From Candidatus Hydrogenedentota bacterium (GTDB lineage Bacteria; Hydrogenedentota; Hydrogenedentia; Hydrogenedentales; JAEUWI01), in contig JAHBVV010000004.1 in NCBI GenBank assembly GCA_019637335.1, positions 80,471-144,470 on the forward strand: 64,000 nt of DNA, written 5' to 3'. The notes under the pieces were generated by a model, which saw nothing but the letters and a program-made list of their open reading frames with translations, had not been told where the DNA came from and did no database searches. Shown piece by piece: positions 13,481 to 45,589 of this stretch (position 1 is the first letter of the stretch; each line of letters starts with the position of its first letter). A program made the translations under genes and the position numbers.

Positions 13481-13539
13481 TTCCGCAAGTCGCTCTGGAT
13501 TGGCCACGCTACGTCGTTCGGCTGAAGTGATACGTTTTT

Positions 13540-28700: not shown

Positions 28701-30948
28701 CGCGCTTCTCCGTGAGTTGCATCACGAATTCGTCGAATTCGGCGAAGCGCCCTTCCAGCTCCTCGATCTGCACCATCACCCGCGTGAGGTACTCGTCGCA
28801 TTTCGGGATGGTGTCGCACAGGTCGATGTAGTTCGCCACGGCCTGATTCAGCAGCTTGATCTGCGAGTTGAACTCGGCGATCCCCTCGGAGCGCCCCAGG
28901 TCGCGGGTCTTGTTCTTCAAGTGCGACCGCGTCTTGTTCAGCGTGGCGAAAATTTCCGAAATTGCGTCGATAATCGCCGTGCGCTGGGTCGCGTCCTCAA
29001 TACGCAGGTTGCTCACGACGTCGATCAGCAATTCCAGGTCCGCCGCCTGCCGATCGATCTCTTCGCCGAGCGCGCGGGCGTCCGACACCTTCTGGAGCCC
29101 GTCGATCTTGCCGGCGTGACCCTGAACGGCTTTCTCGTAGGGCGCCAGCGACTCCGGGCGCAGCAGAAACTCGACGCAGCGCTGCCCGAGATCCTCCGCC
29201 AGCCCCGCCAGCCCCTCCTGAAGCGCCTCCACGGCGGGCAGGTCCATGTATTTCACATCGCGCAGGGCGATGATGCGCCCCCGGCACGCGCGCACGCCCG
29301 CGAGCGAGTCCACAAAGTCGTGGATACTCTCGAACAAACGCGCGCCCGCCGCTTTCGTGATTTCGTCGGCCTCGGCGGCGGCGGCGGCGAGCTGTTCTTT
29401 CGCGTTCCGCCGCGCGTTGGAGACCTTCTCGAATTCGCTGATCGCCGCCTGGCCGGCATCCCGGATGGCGCTAAGGTCGACCTTCAGATTGAAGGTTTCC
29501 TCGTTCCCGATCCAGTGGTACACGTCAAACATGACGCTGATTTTCTTGACGATATCGCCGTAGAGATTGGCGTAGCTATCCTCCTTGGCAATGAGATTCA
29601 GCACCTCGTTGCAGTCCGCCATGCCGCGGACAATATCCTTGTTGCCAATTTTGAACAGCATGGAGTCCGACTGCTCGGCAACGGGCAGGTCCGCGCTGCG
29701 GTAGGGCGTCTGCCAGATCTGCAGGGCGTGATTCCGCTGGGCTTCCGGCGCCGCCTTGAAATAGATCATCTCGCCGTTCTTGAAGATGGAGTATCCGTTG
29801 CAGGGAATCGGCGTGTCCACGGTCTGCGTGATCACGTTGTAGGAAAGCAGGACGTAGTCGCCCTTCTCCCGGTTGTAGAAGACGAACAGATAGTCCTCCC
29901 CGTTGCTGGAGGGGAGCCGCTTTTCGAAGAGCATGTCCCGGTAGCCGCCGCCGAAGGACTTCTGCTCGCCGGTCTGCAAAACGTACCCGTTGGCGTGGAT
30001 GATCCCGTGCTCCTCGGGAAGCAGCACGCAGGATTCCTGGATGGCGTCGATCCGGTAGACCTTCTGGTTCTTCTCGCAGAAGACCAGGTAGCGCCACGCA
30101 TTTTCCTGGTACGGCCGGATCTTGAGCAGGATCAGGTTCCCCACGATCGCGTAGAAGAACTCCGCATCGTCCAGCGTCTGGTCCTTGTCCTCCACCGGCT
30201 CCTGATAGATGCCGAGGCCGCTTTCGGTGTTGTTCTCCACCTTCACCGTCAGGTCGCCGCCCACGGTTTCGACGAACACCCGGTCTTCGATGGAGACGTG
30301 CGGGTGGCGCCCCTGGTAGTGCATGTCGCGGTGGGTGCGCTTCCACTCGAACTCGTGTTGCGGCGGAAAGCGGTACTCGTGATCGCTGCGGTTGTCCATA
30401 TACCGCAGCGCGTCGCCGTCCACGGCCCACTTGAAGACCTTCACGTCCGTGACGTTCTTCCCCACGCGGAACACCATGAACAGGTGCGGGCCGATGAAGG
30501 AGAACTTGGCGAAAACGGTGTTCTTGTAGTACTTGAACAGCTCCTGGAAGTCCCGCGCGAAGGTCTCGTCGCCGATCAGGTCGAGGGGCTCGCGAACGAG
30601 CGTGCGCCCGTCGAGCCGGTAGACCGAGAACACGTCCTCCAGCGCGATCTGCGACTTCAGGCCGATGTGCACGTTGTACCCGAAGATAAACCGGTCGCCG
30701 ATCGGCGCCATATCCCGCGGAATGCAGCTGTGATCGGTCGTAATGTGCTCGGTGGCGAGCAGCTTCGTCTCGATCGCGCCGAAAACGGCCTTCCGCGCGG
30801 CGTTGAGCTTTTCCAGCCGCTCCTGGAGCGCCTTCCCGCCTTTCGCGAGGCGGTTGCGTATGATTTCATACGCGCCCGCCTCCAGGCTGTCGCCGCCCGC
30901 TCCGTCGAGCGCGTCGGGGGCCGGAGCCATCTTTTCCACTTCAGCCAT
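25771..30948 (-). CDS. giant (1725 aa) multidomain protein: beta-rich N-terminus, ~500-aa coiled coil, MoxR/AAA_5-like ATPase domain
   Basis: Walker A LLLISPPGYGKTTLMEY (nt ~27076-27126), Walker B VMLYVDDIQH, sensor VVMAGNPY. Heptad-rich region LKVDLSAIRDAG...EELEGRFAEFDEF... Stop-free ORF with coherent codon usage. Confidence 0.85.
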   Translation of the reverse strand: MAEVEKMAPAPDALDGAGGDSLEAGAYEIIRNRLAKGGKALQERLEKLNAARKAVFGAIETKLLATEHITTDHSCIPRDMAPIGDRFIFGYNVHIGLKSQIALEDVFSVYRLDGRTLVREPLDLIGDETFARDFQELFKYYKNTVFAKFSFIGPHLFMVFRVGKNVTDVKVFKWAVDGDALRYMDNRSDHEYRFPPQHEFEWKRTHRDMHYQGRHPHVSIEDRVFVETVGGDLTVKVENNTESGLGIYQEPVEDKDQTLDDAEFFYAIVGNLILLKIRPYQENAWRYLVFCEKNQKVYRIDAIQESCVLLPEEHGIIHANGYVLQTGEQKSFGGGYRDMLFEKRLPSSNGEDYLFVFYNREKGDYVLLSYNVITQTVDTPIPCNGYSIFKNGEMIYFKAAPEAQRNHALQIWQTPYRSADLPVAEQSDSMLFKIGNKDIVRGMADCNEVLNLIAKEDSYANLYGDIVKKISVMFDVYHWIGNEETFNLKVDLSAIRDAGQAAISEFEKVSNARRNAKEQLAAAAAEADEITKAAGARLFESIHDFVDSLAGVRACRGRIIALRDVKYMDLPAVEALQEGLAGLAEDLGQRCVEFLLRPESLAPYEKAVQGHAGKIDGLQKVSDARALGEEIDRQAADLELLIDVVSNLRIEDATQRTAIIDAISEIFATLNKTRSHLKNKTRDLGRSEGIAEFNSQIKLLNQAVANYIDLCDTIPKCDEYLTRVMVQIEELEGRFAEFDEFVMQLTEKREEAYNAFESRKIQLQERQNKRATALMQAADRILNGIKSRVATFKAVEEIHAYFASDLMIEKVRGIIDELRDLGDTVKLDDVQSRLKTIGEDAVRQLKDRLDLFTEGENVIRFGAHKFTVNTFDLALTTVMRDGEMYFHLAGTNYFDPIRDEAFLATRDLWSQEVMSENDSVYRAEYLAYLILEETRAPGGMELEELRAMSPEALQAFIQKYMGSRYSEGYVKGVHDHDAALILRALLDMEASIGLLAFHPIARALASVFWHQFREEETKARIASTLKGFGVIRELFGDAEAQRHYTAELHGLIDAYLAETEAFDPIWAGEAARYLFEILVRGGGAAISENADRLYQDFLMHLKKNDFAARFEASLNEARPNPNSAFLLCRDWAGAFVRSRGVAVERDYVDETAALILTGDHDISRIIHATSTAELSGLAGSHALLEGGKYLLNYNTFMARLAAYRQETVPRYEAYVARKKQLVEDEAVALRLDEFKPRVLTSFVRNRLIDNVYLPLIGDNLAKQIGAAGDQKRTDRSGMLLLISPPGYGKTTLMEYIANRLGLIFMKINGPALGHQVTSLDPSEATNAAAREELAKLNLALEMGDNVMLYVDDIQHCNPEFLQKFISLCDAQRKIEGVHKGRTRTYDLRGKKVAVVMAGNPYTESGEKFQIPDMLANRADTYNLGEIIGDSADDFETSYLENCLTSNPVLNQLAARSQDDVYAIIRMAQTGSREGIDLKGSFSLDEVNSMVNVMKKLLFVRDTVLTVNKEYIRSAGIHEDYRTEPAFKLQGSYRNMNRIAERVLDLLNDAELRTLINSSYEGDSQTLTSGAEANMLKFKELTGQLSESEAERWASIKKTFTKNLKLKGLGDDQAVGQVLVQLGSINDGLESIAAAMKSGAAQMAASREATEAAPVHEPVPTTVNVVSKVPAALVGVMSEQFKLMQGWLAPIFKETREQTEEMKRLKALMDENLERYQVLLDELQDK

Positions 30949-30998
30949 GGGTGCATCTCCCTCGTGATTCCATCACGCGAACCTCGGGCCTGCGCCCA

Positions 30999-33008
30999 TC
31001 AGAGGATCTGGCTGAGTTTCTTCTTGCTGAAGCCGAACTGCTTCGCCAAGCCGGCGAGGATGTCGAACTCGCCCTCGTCGGCTTCGGATTCGGCAAGCCC
31101 GCGCATCTTGTTGAGCAGCGCCGCGACGGACAGGTTCTTCACGTCCTCGCTGCCGATGCCAAACTGCTGCGTGAACTGCTCCATCCGCGCCTTGAAATAG
31201 GCCGGATCGCCGTTGAAGAAGGTATTCTTCACGTCGGTCAACGCGCGGCTGTTGTCCACCAGGCGATCGACGGACTTCCCGTTGGTGATCGCGCTCGTGA
31301 TCTTGTCGAAGAACTGCGCCTCGCCGCCGACGATGTCGATCCGGGCGCTCTTGAGGGCCTCTCCCAGGATGGCCGCCTGCTGGCGCGCGATCTCTTCCTG
31401 CGCCGCGATAGCCGCCAGTTCGATGGCCTTCGTCTTTTCCAGGTTGAGCTTGAACTCCTCGTGCTCGCGGCCGACCTCGTTGAAGAGCTTCATCGCCTCG
31501 GCCTTGTCCGTGATGCCCTTGGCGTCGGCCTCGAACTTAAGCTGCATCACCTCGGCTTCCGCCTCGCCCTGCTTCTTCGTCGCCGCCGCGCGCGCTTCCA
31601 GGCCCCTCGCCTCGGCGACGGCCTTGCTCTCGATCACCGCCGCCTCCGCCAGGCCCGCCGCCGCCTGCTCCGCCGTCACGCCCTCGGCCAGCAGCTTCTT
31701 GCCCACCGCCTCGCGCTCGCTCGCGTCGCGCAGCGCCTCGGCCGAAATGACCTGCTCTTCCGCGCTGAACCGGGCCGCGTCGCGGCGCGCCTCGGCCGCC
31801 TTGATCTCCTTGACGAGGGCTTCCTGGGCATTCTGCTCGGCCGCCGTAATCGCGACTTTCTTGGCGCGTTCGGCGGTCGCGAATTCCTGCGTGTCCTTGA
31901 TGCGCTCCTGCTCCTCGACCACCGCCCGCTCGACGATCACCCGCTCGCGGATCACGTCCTGGATCGCCTTCTTCTCCACCTCGATGGCCTTGTCCTTCTC
32001 GATGGCCGCCAGCGCCACCACGCGCTCCCGTTCCGTCGCTTCGAGCATGCGGTCCTTCTCCACGCGCTCCTTCTCCACCTGGTCCGTGCGCTCCTTGTTG
32101 CGCAGCGCCACGATCACCTGCCGGTCCTTGTTCTCGTTCGCGATCGCCACCTCTTCCTCGGTGGTGATCCGCGCGCGCTCGGACTTCAGGCGCTCCTCTT
32201 CCTTGATTTTCGCGGCCTCGGCCTGCTCGCGCGCCTGCACGGACTCGATCTCGCGCAGCTGCTTCGCTTCCGCCTCCGCCTGCTGGCGCTCCAGCTCCAG
32301 GATCGCCTCCCGCGCCTCCACGTCCTGCTTCTTTATGATCTTTTCCTTGTCGCGCGTGATGCTGTTCGCCAGAATCTGCTGCTGCGCGGTCAGGTCCGTG
32401 ATCTTCTTGATGCCCTCGGAATCCAGGATGTTGTTCGGATCCAGCTGGTTCATCGGCGTCTGTTCGAGGTAGTCGATCGCCGCGTCGTCCAGCACGTACC
32501 CGTTCAGGTCCCGACCGATAATATTGAGGATCTCTTCCTTGAACTCCTCCCGCGACGTGTACAGCGCGATGAAATCAAACTTCTTGCCCACGGTCTTCAG
32601 CGCTTCGGAAAACTTCGCGTCGAACAGCTCCTCCAGCTTCGACTCCTCCGACGCGCGCGCCGCGCCGATGGACTGCGCCACCTTGAGCACGTCTTCCTCG
32701 TTGTTGTTGACGCGCACGAAGAACGCCACCTTGATGTCCGCGCGGACGTTGTCCTGGCAGACCAGGCCTTGCGCGCCGTGCCGGAAGATCTCGATGCGCC
32801 GCACGGAGATGTCCATGACCTCATGCTGGCGTATCAGCGGCAATACGATTGCCTTCGAGAAATGCACCGAGGGCTTGCTGCCGCCGGTGATAATGAGCGC
32901 CGTGCCCTGTTCGACCTTCCGCCAGCATTTGATCACCATCACCATAATGGCGACCGCAATGACGCCCACGAAGAGCGCCACTATCCCAATGAGTCCCTGC
33001 ATTTTCAA
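30999..33008 (-). CDS. flotillin / SPFH (band-7) domain protein, YqiK/FloT-like
   Basis: N-terminal TM, then SPFH core (KCWRKVEQGTALIITGG...DISVRRIEIFRHGAQGLVCQDNVRADIKVAFFVRV). Long EA-rich coiled coil and flotillin C-terminal region. Confidence 0.85.
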   Translation of the reverse strand: MKMQGLIGIVALFVGVIAVAIMVMVIKCWRKVEQGTALIITGGSKPSVHFSKAIVLPLIRQHEVMDISVRRIEIFRHGAQGLVCQDNVRADIKVAFFVRVNNNEEDVLKVAQSIGAARASEESKLEELFDAKFSEALKTVGKKFDFIALYTSREEFKEEILNIIGRDLNGYVLDDAAIDYLEQTPMNQLDPNNILDSEGIKKITDLTAQQQILANSITRDKEKIIKKQDVEAREAILELERQQAEAEAKQLREIESVQAREQAEAAKIKEEERLKSERARITTEEEVAIANENKDRQVIVALRNKERTDQVEKERVEKDRMLEATERERVVALAAIEKDKAIEVEKKAIQDVIRERVIVERAVVEEQERIKDTQEFATAERAKKVAITAAEQNAQEALVKEIKAAEARRDAARFSAEEQVISAEALRDASEREAVGKKLLAEGVTAEQAAAGLAEAAVIESKAVAEARGLEARAAATKKQGEAEAEVMQLKFEADAKGITDKAEAMKLFNEVGREHEEFKLNLEKTKAIELAAIAAQEEIARQQAAILGEALKSARIDIVGGEAQFFDKITSAITNGKSVDRLVDNSRALTDVKNTFFNGDPAYFKARMEQFTQQFGIGSEDVKNLSVAALLNKMRGLAESEADEGEFDILAGLAKQFGFSKKKLSQIL

Positions 33009-33081
33009 ACCCTCCAGTATCGATCCGTTGGTGAGTAGTTGTTGTCAATCCGGGGCCGGAGCCCGCCGCCGTCGCGATGCC

Positions 33082-33732
33082 CTATACCGCGTCTGGCTCC
33101 GTCTTATTCACGCTTCCTTCAAAGGGAGCGATAATGTACGTTCCATCTTCCTCCCGCGCGACCACCACCGCCTCGTCTCCTTTACGCATGGTGACGCCTT
33201 CGCGGGTCTTCACGTTGAGCAGCAGCGGGGCCCCCTTCATCGGCAATTCCGCCTGCCCGCGCTTCGGCGTGGCCTCCAGCGAGGCCACCACGCACAATTG
33301 CCCGATAATCTGAACCGAATCGCCCGACTCGTCGAACAAGTTTTTGAGCAACGGCACGAACGGCTTCAGCGAAAACCTGGTGAGCACCAGCCCGGCCAGG
33401 AAAATCGGCACAAAAAGCACCGCCGCCAGCAACAGGCTCGCGTTGCCCGTGTAGTAATTGGTGAGAATCGACAGGCACCACATGGAGACGCTCAGCACGG
33501 AAACCACCAGGGTGACCGGCACATCGGCGGCGTACACGAACCGCATCACGGCCCCCAGGCCGAGGCAACCGCTGCCGTCGGCGTCCACGTCGCCATCCCC
33601 CAGATCGAAATCCAGCAGATCGGCCCCGATCGCGCCCGCGATGTAAGTCAGCCAGTACAACCCGCAGAGACCAAACAGGATGGTGTACGGCAAATTTACC
33701 GGCCGGATGGCCTCTTGAAGCACCTCAATCAT
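33082..33732 (-). CDS. YqiJ-like inner membrane protein (DUF1449, NfeD-like partner of flotillin)
   Basis: Start MIEVLQEAIRP. Polytopic membrane N-terminus plus C-terminal soluble beta-rich domain. Sits upstream of the flotillin gene as in E. coli yqiJK. Confidence 0.6.
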   Translation of the reverse strand: MIEVLQEAIRPVNLPYTILFGLCGLYWLTYIAGAIGADLLDFDLGDGDVDADGSGCLGLGAVMRFVYAADVPVTLVVSVLSVSMWCLSILTNYYTGNASLLLAAVLFVPIFLAGLVLTRFSLKPFVPLLKNLFDESGDSVQIIGQLCVVASLEATPKRGQAELPMKGAPLLLNVKTREGVTMRKGDEAVVVAREEDGTYIIAPFEGSVNKTEPDAV

Positions 33733-33856
33733 GCCCTGCACTCCCAAGATACGCAGTCCCGAATACCTGAGGGACGCCATAGTGGCACGACAACACGCCA
33801 CCGGTCAACAGGTGCGCACGTGTTCCCGTGCAGGGAGTACCGTATTGCCCCTGAGT

Positions 33857-34051
33857 TTATTCGATCGCGATGACTTCCAAGGATTCGGCCAGCGCGCTGT
33901 CCGAGGGCGCGAAGGCGCACTGCGTCATGGGACAAGTGGCCCGACCGGCGGTGTGATTGTCCATAAACCACCGGTGGGCGGCGTCGTGGTGAAGGTGAGT
34001 AGGCCTGGCAAGCGCCAGCAGAACGTTCACGTCGAGCAGGGCGACGCTCAA
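33857..34051 (-). pseudogene. vapC: truncated VapC (PIN-domain toxin), N-terminal 64 aa only
   Basis: MSVALLDVNVLLALARPTHLHHDAAHRWF is a PIN N-terminus. The ORF stops after 64 aa where an intact VapC needs ~130. The next gene starts ~55 bp later. Confidence 0.5.
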
Positions 34052-34278
34052 TCCTCTTCCTCGACCCGATGCATGTCCTCAATCGAAATGGGACGCGCCC
34101 CCGGGGCCACCCGGAACATGGGAAACCCCGTTTCGGGCCGCCGGTCAAATTCGGTCGTGGACGCAAGCCCCTGCCGCGCCAGATCGGTAAGAACCCGGCC
34201 AAGAGACACGGACCTTGCCCGCGCGAGTTCGCGCGCTACTTCCAGCAAGTCGTCATCTATAGTTACCGTGGTCTTCAT
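34048..34278 (-). CDS. vapB: VapB-family antitoxin
   Basis: MKTTVTIDDDLLEVARELARARSVSLGRVL. ATGA overlap with the vapC remnant. Confidence 0.65.
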   Translation of the reverse strand: MKTTVTIDDDLLEVARELARARSVSLGRVLTDLARQGLASTTEFDRRPETGFPMFRVAPGARPISIEDMHRVEEED

Positions 34279-34600
34279 AGTTGTAACACTTTAGCCGTAT
34301 GAAATGGCGCCAGCCCATTCTTGTCATGCCGCGATACTACGACGAGAGCGCGCAAGGCTGGGAGCGCAGGCGTCCCCGCCTGCAATGCACCAGAGGTGCA
34401 TGGCGTGTTGGCAATATCGGCACATTTGATCGGGGAGACGATCATACCCGAACTACCGCTGTTTAACAGATTCGCGCCTCCGGCGCGTTGCGGGCGGGCC
34501 GCCCGCGCTCCCATTCGTCCGCACTTCCGTTGCGGCGCAGGATTGTGTCGTCGAGGAATCAAGCCAGCTTCATTCCGCTAGAAGATTACTCATAGTTCAA
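34265..34600 (+). repeat. ~330-bp ORF-less repeated element, copy 1 (second copy at 46905-47240)
   Basis: ~90% identical to 46905-47240 in the same orientation. Begins ttgtaacactttagccgtatgaaat. Track ORFs on both strands inside it are not conserved as proteins between the copies. Confidence 0.7.
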
Positions 34601-34749
34601 CTTTCCCACAGCCTCTCCGGGGTTGTCAAGATGCCCTGGGGCTTCCGCCGCCCGGCTTCGGCCTCCGTTGCGCCCCTTTTCCGGCTGCTCCCGATGCGGT
34701 ACTATATGCCGTGAAAATGCACCGTTCCGCACCCATAGGAAATGAAATC

Positions 34750-37593
34750 ATGCTCCATCGCCGCGCCTTATGCTCGCCCACTTCAGCCCTCGCGCTTCTC
34801 GCCATGCTTGTTTCCACAGCCGCCGCCACTCTCACCCCCGAGCGCCTTCGCTGCGAGTACCTGGAGAATCCCCTCGGCATCGACGTCGCCGTCCCGCGCC
34901 TCTCCTGGATCGTCACCTCCGGCGAACGCGGACAGCGCCAGACCGCCTGGCAGATTCAGGCGGCCTCCACCCCGGAAAAACTTGCCGCGGGCGATGCCGA
35001 TCGCTGGGACTCCGGCAAGGTGGAGAGCGACGAAACCCTCCACATCCCCTACGGCGGCGCGCCGCTGCATTCCCGCGCGCAGGTCTTCTGGCGTGTCCGC
35101 GCGTGGGACATGAACGGCGCCCAGGGCGAATGGAGCGCTCCCGCCGCGTGGTCCATGGGCCTGCTGGACAAGGCCGAATGGACGGCGGCGTGGATCAGCT
35201 TCAAGGACGACACGCCCTTCGATGCGTCGCAGGAGAAGATGGTCCTGCCGCCCGCGCGCTATTACCGCAAGGACTTCGCCGCGCCGAAGGAGATAAAGCG
35301 CGCCACCATCTATGCCACGGCGCTCGGGATCTACGAATTCTCCCTGAACGGCGAACGCATCACCGACCAGCTATTCGCGCCCGGCTGGCCGGACTACCAC
35401 CAGCGCGCCTACTACCACACCTACGACGTCACAACCCGCCTCCAGCAGGGCGACAACACCTGGGGCGCCATCCTCGCGGACGGCTGGTACAGCGGCTACC
35501 TGGGCTACGGCCTCCTTGTGGGCTACGGCCCCAACAAATCCGGCCGCGCCTTCTACGGCAAGACCCCCGCCTTCCAGGCGCAGCTCGAAATCGAGTATGC
35601 CGACGGCTCGAAGGAGATCGTCATCACCGATCCCACTTGGAAAACCGCTACGGGACCGATCCTGATCGCGGACATGCAGATGGGCGAGACCCACGACGCG
35701 CGCCTGGAAATGCCCGGCTGGGATGCGCCGGGCTTCGACGACGCCGCCTGGAAATCCGCCATCCACGCCGAGGACAACGGCAGCATCCGGGTCCCCTATT
35801 GGGATCAGGGCGGCGGCAAAACCGTCGAGCTCGGTTTCCAGGAGCCGCCGGTCTACCAGTCCCACCCCGGCGTTCCCATCCGCCCGATCGAACGGATCGC
35901 CGCGAAATCCATCAACGAGATCGAATCCGGCGTCTACATCGTCGACTTGGGCCAGAACATCTCCGGCGTGGTCGAATTGAAGGTCAAGGGTCCCTCCGGG
36001 ACGCGCGTCCAACTGCGCCACGGCGAAATGCTCCATCAGGACGGCACGCTCATGACCGAAAACCTCCGCAAGGCCCTGGCCACGGACGTCTATATCCTCA
36101 AGGGCGACCCGGACGGCGAAACCTGGCGGCCCCGTTTCACCTTCCACGGCTTCCAGTTCGTCGAGGTGACCGGCCTGCCCGAAGCGCCCACGCCCGACAC
36201 CGTCACCGGCGTGGTCATCCATTCTGACACCCCGCTCCGCAGCCAGTTCGCCTGCTCCGACGACATGGTCAACCAGCTCTTCAGCAATATCGTGTGGACC
36301 CAGCGCGCCAACTTCCTCGAACTGCCCACGGACTGCCCCCAGCGCGACGAACGCCTCGGCTGGACCGGCGACGCCCAGATCTACGCCCGCACCGCCACGA
36401 TCAACGCGGATGTGGGCGCCTTCTTCACCAAGTGGATCCAGGACCTCGAAGAGGCCCAGAAGCCCAACGGCGCGTACCCCGAGTACGCGCCCCACCCCAT
36501 GAACCACGGCCGCGACGGCATCTCCTGGGGAACCGGCTGGATGGACGCAGGCGTCATCGTGCCCTACGCCGTCTACCAGGCCTACGGCGACACCCGCGTC
36601 ATCGAGCGCCACTACGACGCCATGGCCCGCTTCATGGAATTCCGCCGGAGCCTCGCGCCCGACTTCCAGGGCGTCTTCACCGGCAACGACTGGGGCGACT
36701 GGCTCTCCCTCAGCAAGACCCCCATCGAATACATCGATGCGTGCTACTTCTACTACACCGCCAGCCGCATGGCCGAAATGGCCGACGCCATCGGCAAGAC
36801 GGAAAACGCCGCGAAATATCGCGACTGGATGAGACAAATTCAGGCCCGCTTCGTCAAGAACTACCTGAACGACGACGCCAGCCTGGCCGTGCGGACCCAG
36901 ACCGCCTACGCCGTCGCCCTCAACGTGGGCATCCTCCCCGAGGGCCAGCGCGGGGCCGCCGGCGACCGCCTCGCCGCACTCATCGCCGAAGAAAACCACG
37001 CCATGAGCACCGGCTTCATCGGCACCCATCCCCTCCTCCCCGCCCTCACCGACACCGGCCACCACGACCTCGCCGTCCGCCTCCTCCAGAACCGAAAATA
37101 TCCCTCCTGGGGCTTCCCCGTCGTCAACGGCGCAACCACCGTGTGGGAGCGCTGGAACAGCTACACCATCGAGGGCGGCTTCGTCGCCGGCATGAACTCC
37201 TTCAGCCACTACGCCTTCGGCGCCGTCTGCGAATGGATGTTCACCGACCTCGCCGGCATCGACACCGACGGCCCAAGCTACAAACACATCATCCTCCGCC
37301 CCGGCATCCCGAGTGCGGGGAGCAATCCGGATTTCGCCCCGATTGAATGGGTCGAAGCCGAGTATGACTCGATTCGAGGGAAGATTAAGGTGGCGTGGAA
37401 GAAGACGGAGTCGGGATTGGAATGCAACGTGACGATACCCGCGAATACGACGGCGACATTGGAGCTGCCTGTCGGCGAGGGTGCGGTGGTGACCGAGGGT
37501 GGGAGGGCGTTGGCGGAGGCGGGGATTGCGGTGGAAAGTGATGGGAAGATGAGGCTGGCGGCGGGAAGTTATCAAATTGTACAGTCGAATTGA
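34750..37593 (+). CDS. alpha-L-rhamnosidase (GH78), secreted
   Basis: Signal peptide MLHRRALCSPTSALALLAMLVSTAAA. GH78 N-terminal domain LRCEYLENPLGIDVAVPRLSW..., six-hairpin catalytic region and C-terminal beta-sandwich. Confidence 0.85.
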   Translation: MLHRRALCSPTSALALLAMLVSTAAATLTPERLRCEYLENPLGIDVAVPRLSWIVTSGERGQRQTAWQIQAASTPEKLAAGDADRWDSGKVESDETLHIPYGGAPLHSRAQVFWRVRAWDMNGAQGEWSAPAAWSMGLLDKAEWTAAWISFKDDTPFDASQEKMVLPPARYYRKDFAAPKEIKRATIYATALGIYEFSLNGERITDQLFAPGWPDYHQRAYYHTYDVTTRLQQGDNTWGAILADGWYSGYLGYGLLVGYGPNKSGRAFYGKTPAFQAQLEIEYADGSKEIVITDPTWKTATGPILIADMQMGETHDARLEMPGWDAPGFDDAAWKSAIHAEDNGSIRVPYWDQGGGKTVELGFQEPPVYQSHPGVPIRPIERIAAKSINEIESGVYIVDLGQNISGVVELKVKGPSGTRVQLRHGEMLHQDGTLMTENLRKALATDVYILKGDPDGETWRPRFTFHGFQFVEVTGLPEAPTPDTVTGVVIHSDTPLRSQFACSDDMVNQLFSNIVWTQRANFLELPTDCPQRDERLGWTGDAQIYARTATINADVGAFFTKWIQDLEEAQKPNGAYPEYAPHPMNHGRDGISWGTGWMDAGVIVPYAVYQAYGDTRVIERHYDAMARFMEFRRSLAPDFQGVFTGNDWGDWLSLSKTPIEYIDACYFYYTASRMAEMADAIGKTENAAKYRDWMRQIQARFVKNYLNDDASLAVRTQTAYAVALNVGILPEGQRGAAGDRLAALIAEENHAMSTGFIGTHPLLPALTDTGHHDLAVRLLQNRKYPSWGFPVVNGATTVWERWNSYTIEGGFVAGMNSFSHYAFGAVCEWMFTDLAGIDTDGPSYKHIILRPGIPSAGSNPDFAPIEWVEAEYDSIRGKIKVAWKKTESGLECNVTIPANTTATLELPVGEGAVVTEGGRALAEAGIAVESDGKMRLAAGSYQIVQSN

Positions 37594-37674
37594 TCGTATC
37601 GAGAAGGCTTCACCCTAACGTATACGTTCCTTGCACAGTGGAGACTACTTGGTCGCATCTCAGAGGGAGGCTAT

Positions 37675-38366
37675 TAGTGAGAACTGAAGGAAAACTGAAT
37701 CACCAACCTCAGGAGGCGATTGTGGGGAGCCTGCGCGGGCAGCAGAGGGCACTCTACGAGGCCTTCACGGATCGTGACCGTCGATTGGCCAGAATCTATC
37801 TGGGCAGCCTTCAGATACTCGACTCCGAAAACTGCAATAGACTCGCTCTCGCAGCGCATGGCATTCGCGAGCTACTGACGGAGCTGCCTCAACACTTCAA
37901 GGTAGACCTAAAAGCGTATAAACAGAATCTTGGGAGCAAAGTTCGGGAACTTGAGGATGCTTGGGCAACGGTCTCGTCCAAGAGCAACTGCATAGAATCA
38001 TGTAAGTGGTCGGGTGAGATTGATGGACCTCTTTCAAAATTCCTGACACAGATGCACACTTTCATTGATTGGGTAAGAGTACATATGCCCCGACGCAAGG
38101 ACGAAGCCGCAGAGACGCTATTCGCATTAGACCCTGCTCGAGGTCGACTACCGAAGGACATAGAAAGAATCCATGTGGACCTTTGGTTCAAGTTGCGCGA
38201 CTACTTCGTCGGCATTGCCCATCATGGCGGTGACCCTTCCTGGGATGAGTTTTCCCAATATCTAGACGAACTCGAACGATTCCTGCTTGACAGGCTATCG
38301 CCCCGAACGTTTAGTGATATGGACGAAATCGATTCGCTCATAGCGCACGGTGAATCAAATGATTAA
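37675..38366 (+). CDS. hypothetical protein, possible HEPN-like (R-x5-H) motif, encoded in low-GC island
   Basis: GGGAGG RBS with GTG start 6 nt later (the track ORF starts at an earlier TTG). NRLALAAHGIRELL contains an Rx5H arrangement. Local GC is clearly lower than surroundings. Confidence 0.45.
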
Positions 38367-41250
38367 CCAAGCCACTATCGATAGAGCTGTCGACCTTATC
38401 GGCAAGGGCTATAGTCAATACGATTATTTCTTTTCAAATTTATCCTCACCGGAGTGGATTCTTCCGCTTCGAGAAAAGGGCTTTTTCTCCAACCCACTTT
38501 CAACAATCCGAAGAGACGGGAGCGAATACTGGCTTCGTTGGCCGGAGTCTCGGTACTTGGCACGAATAGCCGCATCAGGACCCCAAGAAGTTCTTACCGC
38601 CTTCCAAGGAATTCCAAAAACGGACAACCCATTCATTCACGCAGACATCGTAGAAGCAGCCCTCAAGATCCCAGCAGATATGGCTGCACCGTTGACAAGA
38701 ATAGAATGTGAGTGGTTGAAGACGCAAAGCTACCTAGGCACATTTGCTGAGGATTATGGAGCTTTGATTTCCCATCTTGCGAAAGGTGGTGAGGTCACGC
38801 AGGCGTTAGAGTTTGCACAGGTATTGCTCGATATTATACCGGATCCAAGATTTGTAGATGCCGATGTGAACTCTGATGCTGATGCCGACGCCGAGTTTGG
38901 AATTCCCTCCTCCCCGCGCCCCAAGCCGAGGCTTCGAGATTGGTACGAAAAAGTGCTAGGGACCAATGTGCCGGACTTGGTGGCAGTGGCAGGTATCGAT
39001 TCTGTGAGGCTGTTTTCCAACCTCCTGGCGAAGGCAATAAGGCTTTCACACAGAGATCCGAGCTCTCTCCAGCCGAACGACCATTTGGACTTTCAATTGC
39101 CGAATCTGGAGGAGCTCGATGAAGTATCCAGAGGAGACACCAGGGTTCTACTCGCGAAGACCTTGCTTCAAGTAGTCGAGCAGGCTGTGTCCCAAAACCT
39201 AAACAATCTTGCAAAGGTACTAGAGATTCTAGATTCCAACAATTGGAATATCTTCACTCGCATTGCTCTGTATACATTGACAAGAGTAACCGAATCAGTT
39301 CCTGCTCTCTGCAGAAGATACGTACTCGATCCAAAGTTATTCCAAAATGGTGGGATTGAGAGCGAATACTTCAACCTTTTGCAAGGCTCTCTTGCATCGA
39401 TGTCTAAAGACGAGCGCAATACTCTTTTTCGCTGGATTCAGAACGGCCCGCCCGACTTGCCGGCCTATATGTCGGACGGTCAGGAGGAGAAAGAAAGATA
39501 TGTCAAATCTTGGAAGTGTCGCCGCTATCACGTCTGCCGAGAACATATTTTTGGAGAATACGAAGTTGAGTACAGTCGACTCCTCGAAGAAGTAGGCTCG
39601 GAAGGTACCGCTACCTTTCAGAGGCCACCGAAGATTTGCCATACATGGTTCGGACCACTTGGCCCTTGCACGCCCGAAGAGCTTGGTGAGCGCACTGACG
39701 CGGAAATCATTCAATATATATCCACGTGGATACCGAAGAGCAATTTGATGGAGCCTACTATAGAGGGGTTGGCTCGTACGCTCAGAACCGCTGTCGAACG
39801 CGATGGTCAGAGATTTTCGCAGATGGCCGAACAATTAATTGAGCTCGATCCGACCTATGTTCGGGCGTTATTTGGAGGACTTGAAAATGCCATCAAGAAA
39901 GCGTCCTACATCACTTGGGGAGCAGTACTGAAACTGGCTCAGTGGGTTGTGGAGAAGCATGGAGACGAACCTGATACGGACGACTATACTGGAGATCGTG
40001 ACCCCGGGTGGAGTTGGACTCGAAAGCGCATTGCGTCACTGCTTGAGACTGGGCTCAACCCATGCGAGTCGGAGATACCGTTCGAGCATCGCCAGGATGT
40101 TTGGGTTGTTCTAGAGACACTCTGTGAAGACTCTGACCCAACGCCCGAGTACGAAGCAGAATATGGGGGAACGAATATGGGGCCAATAAATCTATCCCTC
40201 AACGTCGTCCGAGGCCGGGCAATCAGCGCCGCCATTGGTTATGCGTTGTGGGTCAAACGGCATCGTCTGGCCGGCCTAGAAGAGGACGGAGCCGCCGTCA
40301 GCTGGGTTGAGCAGATACCAGAGGTGTTTTCCGTCTTGGAATGTCACCTGGACCCCAAAAAGGACCCCTCACCCGCGATACGCTCAAACTATGGGCAGTA
40401 TATTCCGCAACTCATTTGGCTAGATGAGGGGTGGACAAGAGCTAATGTATCGAACATCTTTGGGATCAGCAGAAGAACTACTCTCGAGGAAAGCGCATGG
40501 AGTGCCTTCATGTATTTCTGCCAACCAAGCACTAAATTACTCGGTGTACTCGCACCAGTCTATCGATACGCGGTCGAGCATCTGGCCCCATCACCTGATG
40601 AGAACGCTGACGGCTTCGACCAGGGCGCAAGACTTGGGCAGCACCTAATCACCTACTACGTATGGGGAATACTGGAGAACGCCAATATCGAGGGCATGCT
40701 GTCTCAATTTTTCAAGAATGCAGAAGACCGGCTAAGAAGCGAAGCCATTGACTATGCAGGCGAATTCTCTAACGGGTGCCCGGAGGACGAACTGCCCAAA
40801 TTGAAAAGTCGTCTCATGCATCTTTGGCGTGACAGACGAAAGATTATTGACGATGCTCCTGATGTTGACAAGTACAAAGAGGAAATCTCCGCATTTGGAT
40901 CTTGGTTCGTTTCCGATGCATTTGAAGAAGACTGGGCATTGGATCAACTGGTTTGGGCCTTGCAGTCCTCAAAGAAAGTTCGTTCCGCTCACCTAGTTGT
41001 GAAGAGGCTTTCCAATTGCTCGGATCAAGACTTACCTGCGGCACTGATTTGCTTGAAATCAATGATGGAAGGAGATGAGCAGGGGTGGGAAATCTCCAGC
41101 TGGCGAAAAGATGTAAAGCGCTTGTTGCGGAAGTGTCTTGATAGCGAGTCTCAAGACTTGTCAGCGCGAGCCGAGAACGTCATTCACTGGTTGGGTGCTC
41201 GAGGCTTGTCGGAATATCGAAGTCTTCTTACCAAAGCAGACTCGCCATAG
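38350..41250 (+). CDS. large (966 aa) hypothetical protein, no recognisable motifs, low-GC island
   Basis: Stop-free ORF overlapping the upstream gene by 17 bp. Mostly helical composition. No P-loop or nuclease motif recognised by eye. Confidence 0.6.
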   Translation: MNQMINQATIDRAVDLIGKGYSQYDYFFSNLSSPEWILPLREKGFFSNPLSTIRRDGSEYWLRWPESRYLARIAASGPQEVLTAFQGIPKTDNPFIHADIVEAALKIPADMAAPLTRIECEWLKTQSYLGTFAEDYGALISHLAKGGEVTQALEFAQVLLDIIPDPRFVDADVNSDADADAEFGIPSSPRPKPRLRDWYEKVLGTNVPDLVAVAGIDSVRLFSNLLAKAIRLSHRDPSSLQPNDHLDFQLPNLEELDEVSRGDTRVLLAKTLLQVVEQAVSQNLNNLAKVLEILDSNNWNIFTRIALYTLTRVTESVPALCRRYVLDPKLFQNGGIESEYFNLLQGSLASMSKDERNTLFRWIQNGPPDLPAYMSDGQEEKERYVKSWKCRRYHVCREHIFGEYEVEYSRLLEEVGSEGTATFQRPPKICHTWFGPLGPCTPEELGERTDAEIIQYISTWIPKSNLMEPTIEGLARTLRTAVERDGQRFSQMAEQLIELDPTYVRALFGGLENAIKKASYITWGAVLKLAQWVVEKHGDEPDTDDYTGDRDPGWSWTRKRIASLLETGLNPCESEIPFEHRQDVWVVLETLCEDSDPTPEYEAEYGGTNMGPINLSLNVVRGRAISAAIGYALWVKRHRLAGLEEDGAAVSWVEQIPEVFSVLECHLDPKKDPSPAIRSNYGQYIPQLIWLDEGWTRANVSNIFGISRRTTLEESAWSAFMYFCQPSTKLLGVLAPVYRYAVEHLAPSPDENADGFDQGARLGQHLITYYVWGILENANIEGMLSQFFKNAEDRLRSEAIDYAGEFSNGCPEDELPKLKSRLMHLWRDRRKIIDDAPDVDKYKEEISAFGSWFVSDAFEEDWALDQLVWALQSSKKVRSAHLVVKRLSNCSDQDLPAALICLKSMMEGDEQGWEISSWRKDVKRLLRKCLDSESQDLSARAENVIHWLGARGLSEYRSLLTKADSP

Positions 41251-41259
41251 CGAATCGTC

Positions 41260-42360
41260 ACCCGTTCCCAAGCTCTGTTTCGAAGCCTATGTCGCCCCTC
41301 CGGGACTTATGTGGCGGGGATGGGCCTTGATCCCAGGACTTGCTTCGCTGCGCCCTGGGCTACGATATGCCGCCACTTCGTGGCTAAGAAATGTTATTCA
41401 CTCATTCCCAGGCTCCGCTTGGGAGTGCAGTTCCCGAAGCTCCGCTTCGAAGGGCCGTAACGCGTCTGTGTCGCCCCTCCGGGACTTATGGGGCGGGGAT
41501 GGGTCTTGATCCCAGGACTTGCTTCGCTGCGCCCTGGGCTACGATATGCCGCCACTTCGTGGCTAAACCGGCGCTCGACGTCCAGTTGCTGGTGAGTGGT
41601 CGAGAGATTACGCTCTGGCCTACAGCACGCCCTGATGGGAGCCGTACCCCCAACCGAACGGCCAGCGCAGGAATCCGCGCCGAGGGGTCGCATTGCGGAA
41701 ACCATGCGCTGCCCACACGCCCATCCCCCATGGAGGCCAACGCAAGAATCAGTCGCGAGGCAGCGCCATATACACTCGTTCCCAGGCTCCGCTTGGGAAT
41801 GCAGTCCCCCAAGCTCTGCTTCGGAGGGCCGCAACGCGCCTATGTCGCCCCTCCGGGACTTATGGGGTGGGGATGGGCCTTGATCCCAGGACTTGCTTCG
41901 CTGCGCCCTGGGCTACGTTATGCCGCCACTTCGTGGCTAAGAGATGGTCGTGGCGGGGCACCCACAAGCCTTTGCGGCGAAGCCGCAGAGCTTGAGGGTG
42001 GCACCCTCGGGCTGCCGATGGTGATTGCGGTCGGGGTTGCGCTCGAGAACCGGGTTTATGATGTGAGGCTTGGATTCTGCTGGCGACTCCGGTGGGGAAA
42101 TACCCCTTGAACCTGGCTGTGCGACATTCCGCGCGATCGTACGCCACGGTCGACGGGGCCTGGGTGCATCAGGGCTATCGATCGGGGTACGTCCCTTCGC
42201 GCCTTCCCCCGCTCTGCTTAGAAACGCGGACCCCGAAGGGTCGCAATGCGGAAACCATACTCGGCCCACACCCCGTCACCCAAGGGGGCCAACGCAAGAA
42301 TCAGTCGCGAGGCGGCGCCATATCGTAGCCCAGTGGCGAGCGTAGCGAGTCCTGGGTCAC
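41260..42360. repeat. REP array, ~95-bp unit (cgcccctccgggacttatggggcggggatgggccttgatcccaggacttgcttcgctgcgccctgggctacgNtatgccgccacttcgtggct) in both orientations, plus a second ~150-bp repeat
   Basis: Units at ~41281, 41468, 41841, and inverted partial ones at 41390 and 42300-42360. The gcattgcggaaaccat...ggccaacgcaagaatcagtcgcgaggc segment is repeated at 41690 and 42240. Confidence 0.75.
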
Positions 42361-42414
42361 CCGCGCACAGCGCCTAAGAAAGTCCCAACGGGGCGGCATA
42401 GGCCCCGCGTCCGT

Positions 42415-42867
42415 TCAGTCCCAGATGTACTGCGGATCGTATTCCACCTCGTGGGCTTTCAAGAATCCCAGGTACTCCGCCTTAAACGTGTATTTGGCGT
42501 GATGGACCTCCTGGTTCTGGACGTATCGATAAACGGTTTCCTTCTGGCTCGCACTCACGGTGAAGGCGCCGTAGCCCGCCTGCCACGCGAAATCGGAGAG
42601 CGCCGGCCAGGTGCGGTGAATCCAGCCGGAGCTGTTGGATTTGATTTCGGACAGTACGTTCTTGAGTGCGTGGTTCTGGCTCAATTTCACCAGAAGGTGA
42701 ACGTGGTCTTCGGTGCCGTTGATGATGAGGGGGATGCCGTCCACGCCCTGCACCGCGCCCGCGAGGTAGCGGTGCACGTCCCCGCGCAGATTGGGCGTAA
42801 GAAATCGTACGCGGCCCTTGGTAGAAAAGACAAGGTGGTAGATGAGATTGCAGTGTGTCTGTGACAT
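42415..42867 (-). CDS. REP-associated tyrosine transposase (RAYT), IS200/IS605 Y1 family
   Basis: LIYHLVFSTKGRVRFL, HVHLLV (HxH) and the C-terminal Y in VYRYVQNQ. Flanked by REPs on both sides in both orientations. Confidence 0.85.
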   Translation of the reverse strand: MSQTHCNLIYHLVFSTKGRVRFLTPNLRGDVHRYLAGAVQGVDGIPLIINGTEDHVHLLVKLSQNHALKNVLSEIKSNSSGWIHRTWPALSDFAWQAGYGAFTVSASQKETVYRYVQNQEVHHAKYTFKAEYLGFLKAHEVEYDPQYIWD

Positions 42868-42924
42868 GGTGGCCTCCCGTGATGTGCGCCATTGCAGTAT
42901 AGTGTTGTTTTTGGAGTTTACCGA

Positions 42925-43100
42925 TGGGAGGAGGCGTGAATCCAGAACGCGCCTATGTCGCCCCTCCGGGACTTATGGGGCGGGGATGGGCCTTGATCCC
43001 AGGACTTGCTTCGCTGCGCCCTGGGCTACGTTATGCCGCCACTTCGTGGCTAGGAAATGCTATTCGATGGCCCAGTGGCGAGCGAAGCGAGTCCCCTCCC
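42925..43100. repeat. REP copy plus inverted partial copy on the right flank of the RAYT
   Basis: Same 95-bp unit at 42955-43050, then an inverted fragment cccagtggcgagcgaagcgagtcc. Confidence 0.6.
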
Positions 43101-43211
43101 CCTCGCCACAAACTTGTGCGCCGGCCCCGCGCTGTTAAACAATATCCCTGACACGCCGCAATGCGCGCGCCGCCCGAATCAATGCGCCGCGCCTTCTACG
43201 AAGGAATCCCC

Positions 43212-44153
43212 ATGCGAATTGCCCTGACACTCGCCGCGCTCCTCCTGGCGCTCGCCCCACGCGCGGAGGCCGCCGAGGGCCCAAAGATTGTGAAGCTGGG
43301 GACGATTGACGTGGACCTGGTGGAGACGACGCCGGTGGTGTTTAACGGGCGGGTGTACCGGTACGAGTATGTTCGGGAGCGGTACAAGCCCAACACGACG
43401 GGCGATTCGTATTCACGTTTCGTCGACCATGTCACGGGCGAGGCGACGCCGGCCTTTGCGGGGGGCTATCACCTGGGGAGCGCGTTTGTGGATGGCGACA
43501 CGGCGATTGTGACGGCGGTGGATATCTGGGATGGCGAGAAGGTCGAGGTGTTCGTGTCGAAGGACCTGGAGACCTGGGAGCAGTGGACCGCGCTGGACCT
43601 GCCGGGGTACGGGATTTTCAATACGTCGCTTTGCAGGGACCCGGAGGGCTACCTGCTGATGTTTGAGGTGGGCAAACCCGAGGAAGTGGCGGGGGTGCGG
43701 TTCACGGCGCGGTTTGCGCGGTCGAAGGACCTCCGCACGTGGGAATTGACGCCGCCGGAGTGCACCTATTCCAAAGACCGGTACACGGCGCCGCATTGCC
43801 TGCGCTACCGGGACGGGTACTATTACAACTTCTACCTCGAGTCGATGCGGGGCGGCTACGCGCAGAGCGTGGTGCGTTCGCGGGACCTCATAAACTGGGA
43901 GCGTACGCCGGCGCATCCGTTCCTGATGTGGGGCGACGAGGACAAGCGGATTGCGAACCCGAATTTGACGCCGGAACAACGGGCGGAGATCGCGTTGGCG
44001 GAGAACCGGAACAACTCGGATTTCGACTATTGCGAGTTTGAGGGCAAGCTGATTGTCAACTACTCGTGGGGGAATCAGCGGGGATTGGAGTTTCTGGCGG
44101 AGGCCCGGTTTGACGGGACGGAGGCGGAGTTTCTGGCGGCGCTGTTTCCTTGA
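43212..44153 (+). CDS. secreted hypothetical protein, possibly a beta-propeller glycoside-hydrolase-like fold
   Basis: Signal peptide MRIALTLAALLLALAPRAEA. Beta-rich, with repeated D/W-containing blades. Family not confidently recognised. Confidence 0.5.
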   Translation: MRIALTLAALLLALAPRAEAAEGPKIVKLGTIDVDLVETTPVVFNGRVYRYEYVRERYKPNTTGDSYSRFVDHVTGEATPAFAGGYHLGSAFVDGDTAIVTAVDIWDGEKVEVFVSKDLETWEQWTALDLPGYGIFNTSLCRDPEGYLLMFEVGKPEEVAGVRFTARFARSKDLRTWELTPPECTYSKDRYTAPHCLRYRDGYYYNFYLESMRGGYAQSVVRSRDLINWERTPAHPFLMWGDEDKRIANPNLTPEQRAEIALAENRNNSDFDYCEFEGKLIVNYSWGNQRGLEFLAEARFDGTEAEFLAALFP

Positions 44154-44161
44154 TGGGGTTG

Positions 44162-44250
44162 GGGGAATGGCAGGGACTGCAGGGACATCAGGGACTGCAG
44201 GGACGGCAGGGACGGCAGGGACTGCAGGGACGGCAGGGACTACAGGGACG
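44162..44250. repeat. 9-bp microsatellite (R-GCAGGGAC)n, ~10 units
   Basis: ggcagggactgcagggacatcagggactgcagggacggcagggac..., immediately after the stop at 44153. Confidence 0.8.
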
Positions 44251-44443
44251 GCTGACGCTTTTCACGGGTACAGCCGTTCATGGCGCTTCGTGTCACCCGT
44301 TAATGATGAAATACCGCTGCTGACTGTTGGCGCTCTTCTGGAGTCTCGCACGCTCAAGCCTTCGCGGCGGAGCCGCGGAGCTTGAACGTGGCACCCATGG
44401 CTCCCTTTGAAATTTCGGAGCAGGCACGCGGGAGCCCGTCCCC

Positions 44444-44815
44444 TCAGCCGTAGCGGCGCTCTGTGCGGAGTTCTTCCTCGATCGGGCGCACTTCAATCGT
44501 GCCGAGTTGGGCCGAGGGCCATTTTTCGGCGATCTTGAGGGCTTCGTCGAAATCGGCGGCTTCGATGAGGAAGAAGCCGCCGATCTGTTCCTTGGTTTCG
44601 GCGAAGGGGCCGTCGGTGATGGCGGTTTTGCCGTCGCGCACGCGGACGGTGGCGGCGGTCGTGGCGCTCTGGAGCGGGTGCGCGGTGATGAGGCGCTGGT
44701 TGTCGAGCAGGAACTGGACGTAATCAAGGGTCTGCTGGCGGAGGGCCTGCCAGTCCTCCGGGGGCATGTCGTGGAACAGGGCTTCCTCTTCGTAGGCGAT
44801 ACACATGAATTTCAT
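44444..44815 (-). CDS. YciI-like (DGPF domain) protein
   Basis: DGPFAETKEQIGGFFLIEAADFDEALKIA. Confidence 0.7.
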   Translation of the reverse strand: MKFMCIAYEEEALFHDMPPEDWQALRQQTLDYVQFLLDNQRLITAHPLQSATTAATVRVRDGKTAITDGPFAETKEQIGGFFLIEAADFDEALKIAEKWPSAQLGTIEVRPIEEELRTERRYG

Positions 44816-44877
44816 CATTCGGCTCCCTTGCGCTGCCCGCGCTGCTTACCCCGCATATTCTACCTGAATGCGGGGCG

Positions 44878-45321
44878 CTATGCCTCCCGGGCAAAGACCG
44901 CCTGGTTCGTGTACGGGTCGAAGGGCACGGAGCCGTGTTCGTGGACGATTACCCAGGCATTGCCGCGGCGCTCGAAGATGGCGGTGGCGCGGAGAAGGGT
45001 CTGGGCGGCGGGGTGATCGACGGGCAGGTCGACAAAGCGCCAGAGCCAGTGCGCGGCGGCCATGCCGGGGCCGGCGAAGACGCGCAGGTCTTCGGAGACA
45101 ATCCGGAATCCTTCGGGCATGTGCGGGAAGCACTGCTCCCAGCCCTGGCGGAGGATTTCTCGGCCCCGCGCGACAAAGGGCGGGATGGCGTCAAAATAGA
45201 CGAGGTCATCGGCGTAGAAATTCAGGATGGCGTCAACATCCCGGGAGGCAATGGCGCGGTCGCGCTCCTGGATGATCGTGCGGACTTCTGCTTCGGTGGT
45301 GGTTTCGGCGGTGGTGGACAT
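44878..45321 (-). CDS. SnoaL-like / NTF2-like domain protein
   Basis: VRTIIQERDRAIASRDVDAILNFYADDLVYFD... is a ketosteroid-isomerase-like pattern. Confidence 0.65.
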   Translation of the reverse strand: MSTTAETTTEAEVRTIIQERDRAIASRDVDAILNFYADDLVYFDAIPPFVARGREILRQGWEQCFPHMPEGFRIVSEDLRVFAGPGMAAAHWLWRFVDLPVDHPAAQTLLRATAIFERRGNAWVIVHEHGSVPFDPYTNQAVFAREA

Positions 45322-45589
45322 GGGAAGGCTCCTTTGTGAATATCATTTCCTATCTTGTTATATCGACGAACGGGGCCTTCAAGACAGGACATAACGGGGG
45401 GAGGGCGGTGTGACCCCGGCCGGGACGCACCTCCGCGATCGGGTTTTTGTCGTTGGCGGGGGGCTGGTTGGACGGTGGGTATGGCGCCCGGGGTGTGGCG
45501 GGTGTGCGCGGATACCCTCCCCTGGGTGTGCGTGATCGCGTGACTCGGAGGCCGGCGGCGCGAGGGCCTGTTGCGCTGTTGCTTCGCTA

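Follow-up and report, generated by a model that had tools for sequence, protein, structure and literature searches.

The 64,000-nt stretch of contig JAHBVV010000004.1 of a Candidatus Hydrogenedentota bacterium analysed here (the window) harbours two copies, A and B, of a 307-nt intergenic repeat. Copy A is located between a vapB-like gene (34048-34278, - strand) and a GH78 alpha-L-rhamnosidase gene (34750-37593, + strand), and copy B upstream of a BNR sialidase gene (45590-46768, - strand). The repeat is a non-coding transposable element of the miniature inverted-repeat type (MITE), of a family ranging from 207 to 528 bp, and not a structured RNA gene. It belongs to a set of five elements in the window (E1 to E5, copies A and B being E3 and E4) which very probably derive from, and presumably were moved by, an ISBst12-like insertion sequence (IS) of the IS66 family with a single open reading frame (ORF). 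The two copies and the parts of copy A are as follows.

34283-34589, + strand: MITE copy A (E3), 307 nt; head matching the IS left end at 21/23 positions, perfect 8-bp duplication, empty site in the related contig L093
46921-47227, + strand: MITE copy B (E4), 307 nt; head the same as in E3, tail GTAATTCTTTAGCGGAATGAAGC on the - strand
34283-34305, + strand: left terminal inverted repeat of E3 (IRL type), GTAACACTTTAGCCGTATGAAAT, identical in copy B
34567-34589, - strand: right terminal inverted repeat of E3 (IRR type, degenerate), GTAATCTTCTAGCGGAATGAAGC as read on the - strand
34359-34514 (edges approximate): internal imperfect palindrome of E3, in which GGGAGCGCAGGCGTCCCCGCCTGCAATGC pairs with GCGTTGCGGGCGGGCCGCCCGCGCTCCC

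Copies A and B differ by 22 substitutions and by no insertion or deletion (92.8% identity); 16 of the 22 substitutions are transitions, and 13 are bunched at element positions 143-189. The similarity ends at the element boundary on the right and within ~10 nt of it on the left, the flanks being unrelated except for a short CTTCA(T/A)AGTT on the left side. A preliminary description of this DNA had reported a repeat of ~330 bp and ~90% identity, present twice in the same orientation and between genes. The repeat, its + orientation and its intergenic position were all recovered, with the length corrected to 307 nt and the identity to the value given above. The start 'ttgtaacac' ascribed to both copies is not common to them: the shared sequence opens at GTAACAC, preceded by 'tt' in A and by 'ag' in B. 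Nor are the copies, with a GC content of 0.60-0.61, GC-rich relative to the window (0.626). As for the statement that the repeat is ORF-less and preserves no reading frame, both copies do retain an 86-aa ORF on the + strand and an ORF of at least 95 aa on the - strand (about 86 to 100 aa). These ORFs gave no Pfam match, and the substitutions are indeed of a non-coding kind (7 synonymous and 10 non-synonymous codons; codon positions 4/6/9).

A motif scan of the window recovered five elements, all with their heads on the + strand and each bounded by a head and a degenerate inverted tail, so that the type of element described as present twice has three further members with the same ends. The head motif, GTAACAC(T/G)TTAGC(C/G)GT(A/C)TGAA (also written GTAACACTTTAGCCGT(A/C)TGAA; 21-23 bp), has five occurrences on the + strand, matched by five inverted ones at the tails, where ~0 would be expected by chance. 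The three additional elements are listed below.

13006-13533, + strand: MITE E1, 528 nt; same ends, eight 51-nt tandem hairpin-pair units inside
15918-16193, + strand: MITE E2, 276 nt; head like that of E1 and E5, tail and sub-terminal module like those of E3 and E4
47456-47662, + strand: MITE E5, 207 nt; 228 bp to the right of copy B

Complementarity between head and tail amounts to 16/25 positions in E3, to 16-18/25 in E3 and E4 taken together, and reaches 19/25 in E5. The tails fall into two variants, ending in AGCGGAATGAAG in E2, E3 and E4 and in AGCCGAACGAAG in E1 and E5. The interiors are mosaic: a head module of ~50 nt is common to E1, E2 and E5, a tail module to E2, E3 and E4, and the GC-rich hairpin module GC(C/G)GGCGGGCCGCC(C/G)GCGCTCC is found in 5/5 elements and, within the window, only inside them. 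The head module of E1, E2 and E5 also resembles the full-length IS in the sub-terminal part of its left end, up to about position 45.

The terminal inverted repeats and target-site duplications that the preliminary description proposed to look for were detected, the former as IS66-type ends and the latter as perfect, AT-rich 8-bp duplications flanking 3/5 elements (E1, E3 and E5). The probability of each perfect 8-bp duplication arising by chance is ~1.5e-5.

34275-34282: left duplication of E3, TCATAGTT, which includes the vapB start codon (CAT at 34276-34278, + strand)
34590-34597: right duplication of E3, TCATAGTT
12998-13005 and 13534-13541: duplication of E1, GTTTTTTT, in the T-tract of a terminator-like hairpin
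47448-47455 and 47663-47670: duplication of E5, CTTTTCTT, perfect

For copy A the state of the locus without the element is available for comparison. Contig L093 (an ENA contig, Hydrogenedentiales_JAEUWI01) is syntenic with positions 29279-37529 of the window at ~80% identity, the shared region taking in the vapB, vapC and rhamnosidase genes; the rhamnosidase of the window is 100% identical to a 929-aa NCBI protein from a metagenome-assembled genome (MAG) of Candidatus Hydrogenedentes. The vapB start of L093 (CAT on the + strand, within CATAG) is followed directly by AGCAACACTGTCCCACGG...TGTCAAGATGCC, which is homologous to the window from 34598 onwards, whereas in the window the homologous AGTTCAACTTTCCCACAG...TGTCAAGATGCC comes only after the second TCATAGTT, to the right of the element. 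When positions 34283-34597 (the 307-nt element and one duplication) are removed, the window and L093 become collinear across the junction and on through the conserved block TGTCAAGATGCC, without a gap. Hence, L093 holds the empty site and copy A is an insertion. The empty-site comparison covers copy A; similarity to the relatives L096 and L097 ends inside the sialidase gene, and L095, a Logan contig from the same organism, stops 28 bp short of copy B.

Copy A would have landed on the start codon of vapB, the ATG being restored by the duplication. The vapB gene is intact (76 aa), and its native upstream region is displaced by 315 bp. The displaced upstream blocks include TGTCAAGATGCC, which reads TTGACA on the vapB strand. 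The vapBC locus (33857-34278, - strand) is decayed in comparison with positions 4877-5547 of L093: of the 147-aa VapC orthologue, residues 1-47 alone can be aligned, and the locus lacks about 450 bp that L093 possesses. With a MITE at the antitoxin start codon and a truncated toxin gene, the locus can serve as a modest example of a toxin-antitoxin operon hit by a MITE.

The origin of the ends was traced in other genomes. The scan for the end motif covered one genome per GTDB species, a set that does not include the source MAG of the window, and the head motif led to 90 loci in Planctomycetota, Desulfobacterales, Hydrogenedentales, Elusimicrobia and other MAGs. At 91/91 motif occurrences the upstream sequence is unrelated and conservation opens exactly at GTAAC, and the downstream sequences fall into many unrelated families. 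Such a sharp boundary, with unrelated sequence outside and diverse sequence inside, is the signature of a transposon end; the 23-bp end of this lineage is GTAACACTTTAGCCGTCTGAAGT. Several of the loci carry complete elements with a transposase gene. At L047 (record OW818658.1; positions 659-2195 of L047), a 1537-bp element with the same ends is flanked on both sides by the duplication AAAATTGT and contains a single ORF of 480 aa, the stop codon of which falls inside the right end; there is no space for tnpA or tnpB beside it. The encoded protein matches the Pfam domains DDE_Tnp_IS66 (PF03050, 1.8e-39) and zf-IS66 (PF13005) as well as the NCBIfam IS66 equivalog NF033517 (274.6 bits against a cut-off of 180). 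Further full-length relatives are the following.

L002 and L050: 1537 bp, transposase identical to that of L047, same record (OW818658.1)
L011: 1525 bp, in a Hydrogenedentales MAG (the phylum of the window), transposase 91.6% identical to that of L047, duplication AGTGTTTT
L019: full-length copy, transposase 58% identical to that of L047
L059, L071 and L087: 1503 bp, transposase 49% identical to that of L047

When heads and tails were paired at all loci, the flanking octamers were identical at 8/8 positions in 16 and at 7/8 in 11 of the 43 pairs (27/43 altogether). The tail variants of the window are also seen at the right ends of family members from other genomes; the variant ending in AGCGGAATGAAG, for instance, is also the IRR of L014 and L001. 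The transposases of the autonomous relatives share less than 30% identity with the best plasmid-borne IS66 transposases.

One locus suggested another function for the head. In a Planctomycetota MAG (JBNJEM01), at L035 585-3911, two inverted MITE heads bracket genes for an extracytoplasmic function (ECF)-type sigma factor and a Ser/Thr kinase over ~3.3 kb, and the head was therefore considered as an ECF-sigma promoter. This idea was rejected: the motif sharply delimits interiors that are unrelated to one another, occurs in combination with inverted tails and 8-bp duplications, and encloses transposase genes as well. Since nearer tails are present at 3428-3615, the arrangement at L035 probably represents two independent MITEs rather than a composite transposon.

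The window thus holds small non-coding elements with terminal inverted repeats, a duplication of fixed length, an empty site in the case of copy A and an autonomous element with the same ends elsewhere, as is expected of a MITE. Of the properties of an IS66/ISBst12-like parent, GTAA ends of ~20-30 bp and 8-bp repeats are present in the window and at the related loci, and a DDE transposase as the sole ORF was found at the related loci and not in the window. The genome would encode, or once have encoded, a transposase of this lineage outside the window, which would bind both ends, excise or copy the element and, cutting an AT-rich octamer with an 8-bp stagger, insert it there; repair of the cut would generate the 8-bp duplication. 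The recovered duplications are AT-rich within a window of 63% GC. Lacking a gene, the interior would have been built of GC-rich hairpin modules that were shared and shuffled among the five elements and amplified in tandem, and copies A and B would have arisen by transposition of one subfamily, followed by a divergence of ~7%.

Several observations weigh against this derivation. The 64-kb window encodes no transposase of the IS66 family, and a cognate one in the source organism is inferred. The tails are degenerate, head and tail being complementary at only 15-19/25 positions, which makes the present-day mobility of the elements doubtful. No duplication is recognisable at copy B, whose flanks AAAGTTAG and TCTGTTAA match at 4/8 positions, or at E2, where 2/8 positions match. 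The sequence CTTCA(T/A)AGTT is common to the left flanks of A and B, which is attributed to an AT-rich target preference or to chance, both being candidate causes. Finally, the 307-nt subfamily is known from two copies only. A metagenome scan with the internal 20-mer GTCCCCGCCTGCAATGCACC gave a single match, a chance one in an unrelated AT-rich sequence, and a BLASTN search of plasmid and phage collections with the element gave none. Given a divergence of 7%, tails that are degenerate and a copy B that lacks the duplication, the copies seem to be old and possibly immobile; the duplication of copy B may have been lost via recombination between copies or an adjacent rearrangement.

The interior of the elements deserves a separate description. 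The recurrent unit, or cassette, consists of (T/C)TGCGCC-loop-GGCGC(A/G) followed by the hairpin module GC(C/G)GGCGGGCCGCC(C/G)GCGCTCC, and can also be written as ATTGCGCC-loop-GGCGCAAT followed by GCCGGCGGGCCGCCGGCGCTCC. Eight tandem units with a period of 51 nt are present in E1 (13070-13525), and one or two units in the other MITEs, including the following sites.

47508-47607: cassette in E5
34475-34511: cassette in E3
47113-47149: cassette in E4

A single cassette was also found at positions 12815-12862 of the relative L092, with no IS66-type ends nearby; the cassette may be an independent small repeat that was captured and amplified inside MITEs. Similarly, L093 contains at 8940-9125, downstream of the rhamnosidase gene and without IS66-type ends, a 57-nt counterpart of the internal palindrome of A and B (86% identical), its partner arm lying further on (arms GGGAGCGCAGGCGTCCCCGCCTGC and GCGGGCGGGCCGCCCGCGCTCCC). 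The MITE interior may have been assembled from such pre-existing genomic palindromes.

The preliminary description left the choice between a structured non-coding RNA (ncRNA) and a MITE, and the ends, duplications, autonomous relatives and empty site speak for the latter. Under the former, the two copies would be paralogous RNA genes, their stems RNA helices and their conserved ends a closing stem. In favour of this, both copies lie between genes in the same orientation, their minimum free energy (MFE) of folding is well under the values for shuffled sequence (z about -4.8 to -5.4), and one double change (C-G to G-C) is seen in the MFE structure of copy B. The z-scores, however, are alike on both strands (-5.2/-5.1 for E3 and -5.4/-4.9 for E4), which indicates a palindrome at the level of DNA and not an RNA shaped on one strand, and at 12 substitutions in paired positions the pair is kept in only 4-6. 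The seemingly better folding of the + strand of E1, E2 and E5, seen in the raw energies, was likewise dismissed as an effect of G+T composition, the z-scores being equal on both strands. The Rfam search named in the preliminary description, run on the entire window at gathering scores and on copies A and B at permissive E-values, assigned the elements to no known family. Below threshold, they matched only plant and animal microRNA-precursor models (30-37 bits against thresholds of 124-137) on both strands, and these weak matches are accounted for by the internal imperfect palindrome at 34359-34514. Neither sigma-70-like promoters nor intrinsic terminators were found in scans around both copies, and a scan of 33000-48500, which includes both copies and E5, revealed no transfer RNA or transfer-messenger RNA gene. 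The supposed closing stem is the predicted transposase-binding end of an IS family that occurs across phyla with unrelated interiors, and an RNA gene would explain neither the 8-bp duplication nor the empty site. The RNA tests are low in power with two copies that are 93% identical; nothing favours the ncRNA, and we consider it very unlikely.

Among the other explanations, a functional or self-amplifying role of the cassette, for which IS66-type MITEs would serve as the vehicle, is improbable. The cassette could in that case, for instance, bind a protein, act as a terminator or attenuator, or be transcribed into a structured RNA, and the 307-nt element, if this were true, would have a role at the level of the host or of RNA beyond that of selfish DNA. 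Still less probable is a palindromic repeat of the repetitive extragenic palindromic (REP) or REPIN type, spread by a RAYT (an IS200-like Y1 transposase). The window does contain a Y1_Tnp gene (42415-42867), the element interior consists of GC-rich hairpins, and a solitary hairpin-pair module without IS66 ends exists in L092, but the repeats flanking the Y1 transposase gene belong to a different family (matches to Acido-Lenti-1), and the elements possess 8-bp duplications and IS66-family ends. REP and REPIN elements are not known to make target-site duplications or to have IS66-type ends. The probability that the repeat stems from an error of assembly, or from a mere segmental duplication between genes that involved no mobility, seems next to negligible. 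Copy B without a duplication and the CTTCA(T/A)AGTT shared by the left flanks would agree with it; against it stand the 22 substitutions, the otherwise differing flanks with a similarity that stops at the element ends (on the left, within ~10 nt), three further elements of the window with the same ends and different interiors, and the perfect duplication and orthologous empty site of copy A. The assembly duplication that the preliminary description had kept in view is therefore not what the two copies represent.

The derivation of the MITEs from an IS66-family element agrees with what is known of the family. IS66 elements have inverted repeats of 20-30 bp starting with GTAAGCG and generate 8-bp direct repeats (PMC11946415). 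The elements described here resemble the canonical members from Agrobacterium, Rhizobium and Pseudomonas in their 20-30-bp GTAA repeats, 8-bp direct repeats and, in the autonomous relatives, a DDE transposase of the TnpC kind (PMC11946415, PMC12888890). Unlike the canonical tnpA-tnpB-tnpC elements, with GTAAGCG ends and three ORFs, the lineage described here has ends beginning with GTAACAC and a single ORF. The closest parallel is the ISBst12 group, represented by ISDge4 of Deinococcus geothermalis, the single transposase of which has 449 aa; its end is GTAACTGCTCAGCA and its direct repeat is 8 bp long (PMC12898284). Both ends begin with GTAAC (GTAACTGCTCAGCA in ISDge4, GTAACACTTTAGCC here), both systems generate an 8-bp duplication, and the autonomous relatives likewise have one ORF (449-480 aa, DDE_Tnp_IS66) and no tnpA or tnpB. 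The elements of the window, in contrast, are 207-528 bp long and encode nothing, that is, they are non-autonomous derivatives.

Short non-coding elements with inverted repeats and target duplications have likewise been described as MITEPsy1 and MITEPsy2 of Pseudomonas syringae (PMC3189936) and as a MITE of Cardinium (PMC9769881). The elements of the window share with bacterial MITEs generally the intergenic position, the presence of several copies and the folding into long hairpins, and differ in their interior, where GC-rich hairpin modules form a mosaic and can undergo tandem amplification (E1). A 211-212-bp MITE of the Planctomycetota MAG JBNJEM01 has the identical left end GTAACACTTTAGCCGTCTGAAGT, 8-bp duplications and at least 15 paired copies; its interior, however, is unrelated, its IRR variant is GTAACTTTTTAGCGAACTGAAGT, and its host belongs to a different phylum. 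The kind of mobile DNA is ordinary, and this particular family is one for which no description was found: a search of the open-access literature, with ISfinder lying outside it, yielded no paper on IS66-derived MITEs or containing the end sequence.

The relevance of the family concerns mainly annotation, the hygiene of ncRNA screens and the study of IS66. Sequences starting with GTAACACTTTAGCCGTCTGAAGT in this Hydrogenedentes genome, in Planctomycetota, in Desulfobacterales and in other MAGs should be masked as IS66-type mobile DNA before ncRNA screens, because their strong folding scores mimic those of structured RNAs. A class of MITEs attributable to the IS66 family is little documented, and the transposition of IS66 itself is poorly understood. 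The 23-bp end has stayed conserved from one phylum to another, and different MITEs have repeatedly arisen from it, which makes it a convenient handle for defining the putative binding site of the transposase.

Other repeats were noted in the neighbourhood. The surroundings of copy B are repeat-dense: a perfect 17-nt inverted repeat, CCAGGGCAATCGCATTT/AAATGCGATTGCCCTGG (46856-46872 and 47384-47400), brackets copy B together with the spacer on its right, and the spacer between copy B and E5 holds the palindrome GGAGCGCTGGCAT...ATGCCGGCGCTCC. Around the 150-aa IS200-like Y1 transposase gene (42415-42867, - strand; Pfam PF01797, 1e-22), matches to the Rfam family Acido-Lenti-1 (RF01687) were detected at the following positions.

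41332-41385, + strand: RF01687 match
41511-41564, + strand: RF01687 match
41885-41938, + strand: RF01687 match
42998-43051, + strand: RF01687 match
42303-42356: inverted copy

The four matches score 39.6-40.1 bits, barely over the gathering score of 37, and lie in a Hydrogenedentes genome, outside the phyla after which the family is named. Since they are arranged as REP/REPIN repeats are around a RAYT gene, the Acido-Lenti-1 small RNA motif looks here like a DNA repeat of the Y1-transposase system. A 138-nt tandem repeat in ~4 copies (91-95% identical) with the hairpin CGTCATCCCCGCGAACGCGGGGATCCAGCGA and inverted copies occupies positions 8489-9146, and a 9-nt tandem repeat, GGGAC(T/G/A)(G/T)CA, of ~12 units (44155-44261) directly follows the ORF at 43161-44153. 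At positions 22632-22853, two arms of 52 nt that are 87% complementary and separated by 118 nt make up a long inverted repeat, which may be another MITE-like or palindromic element.

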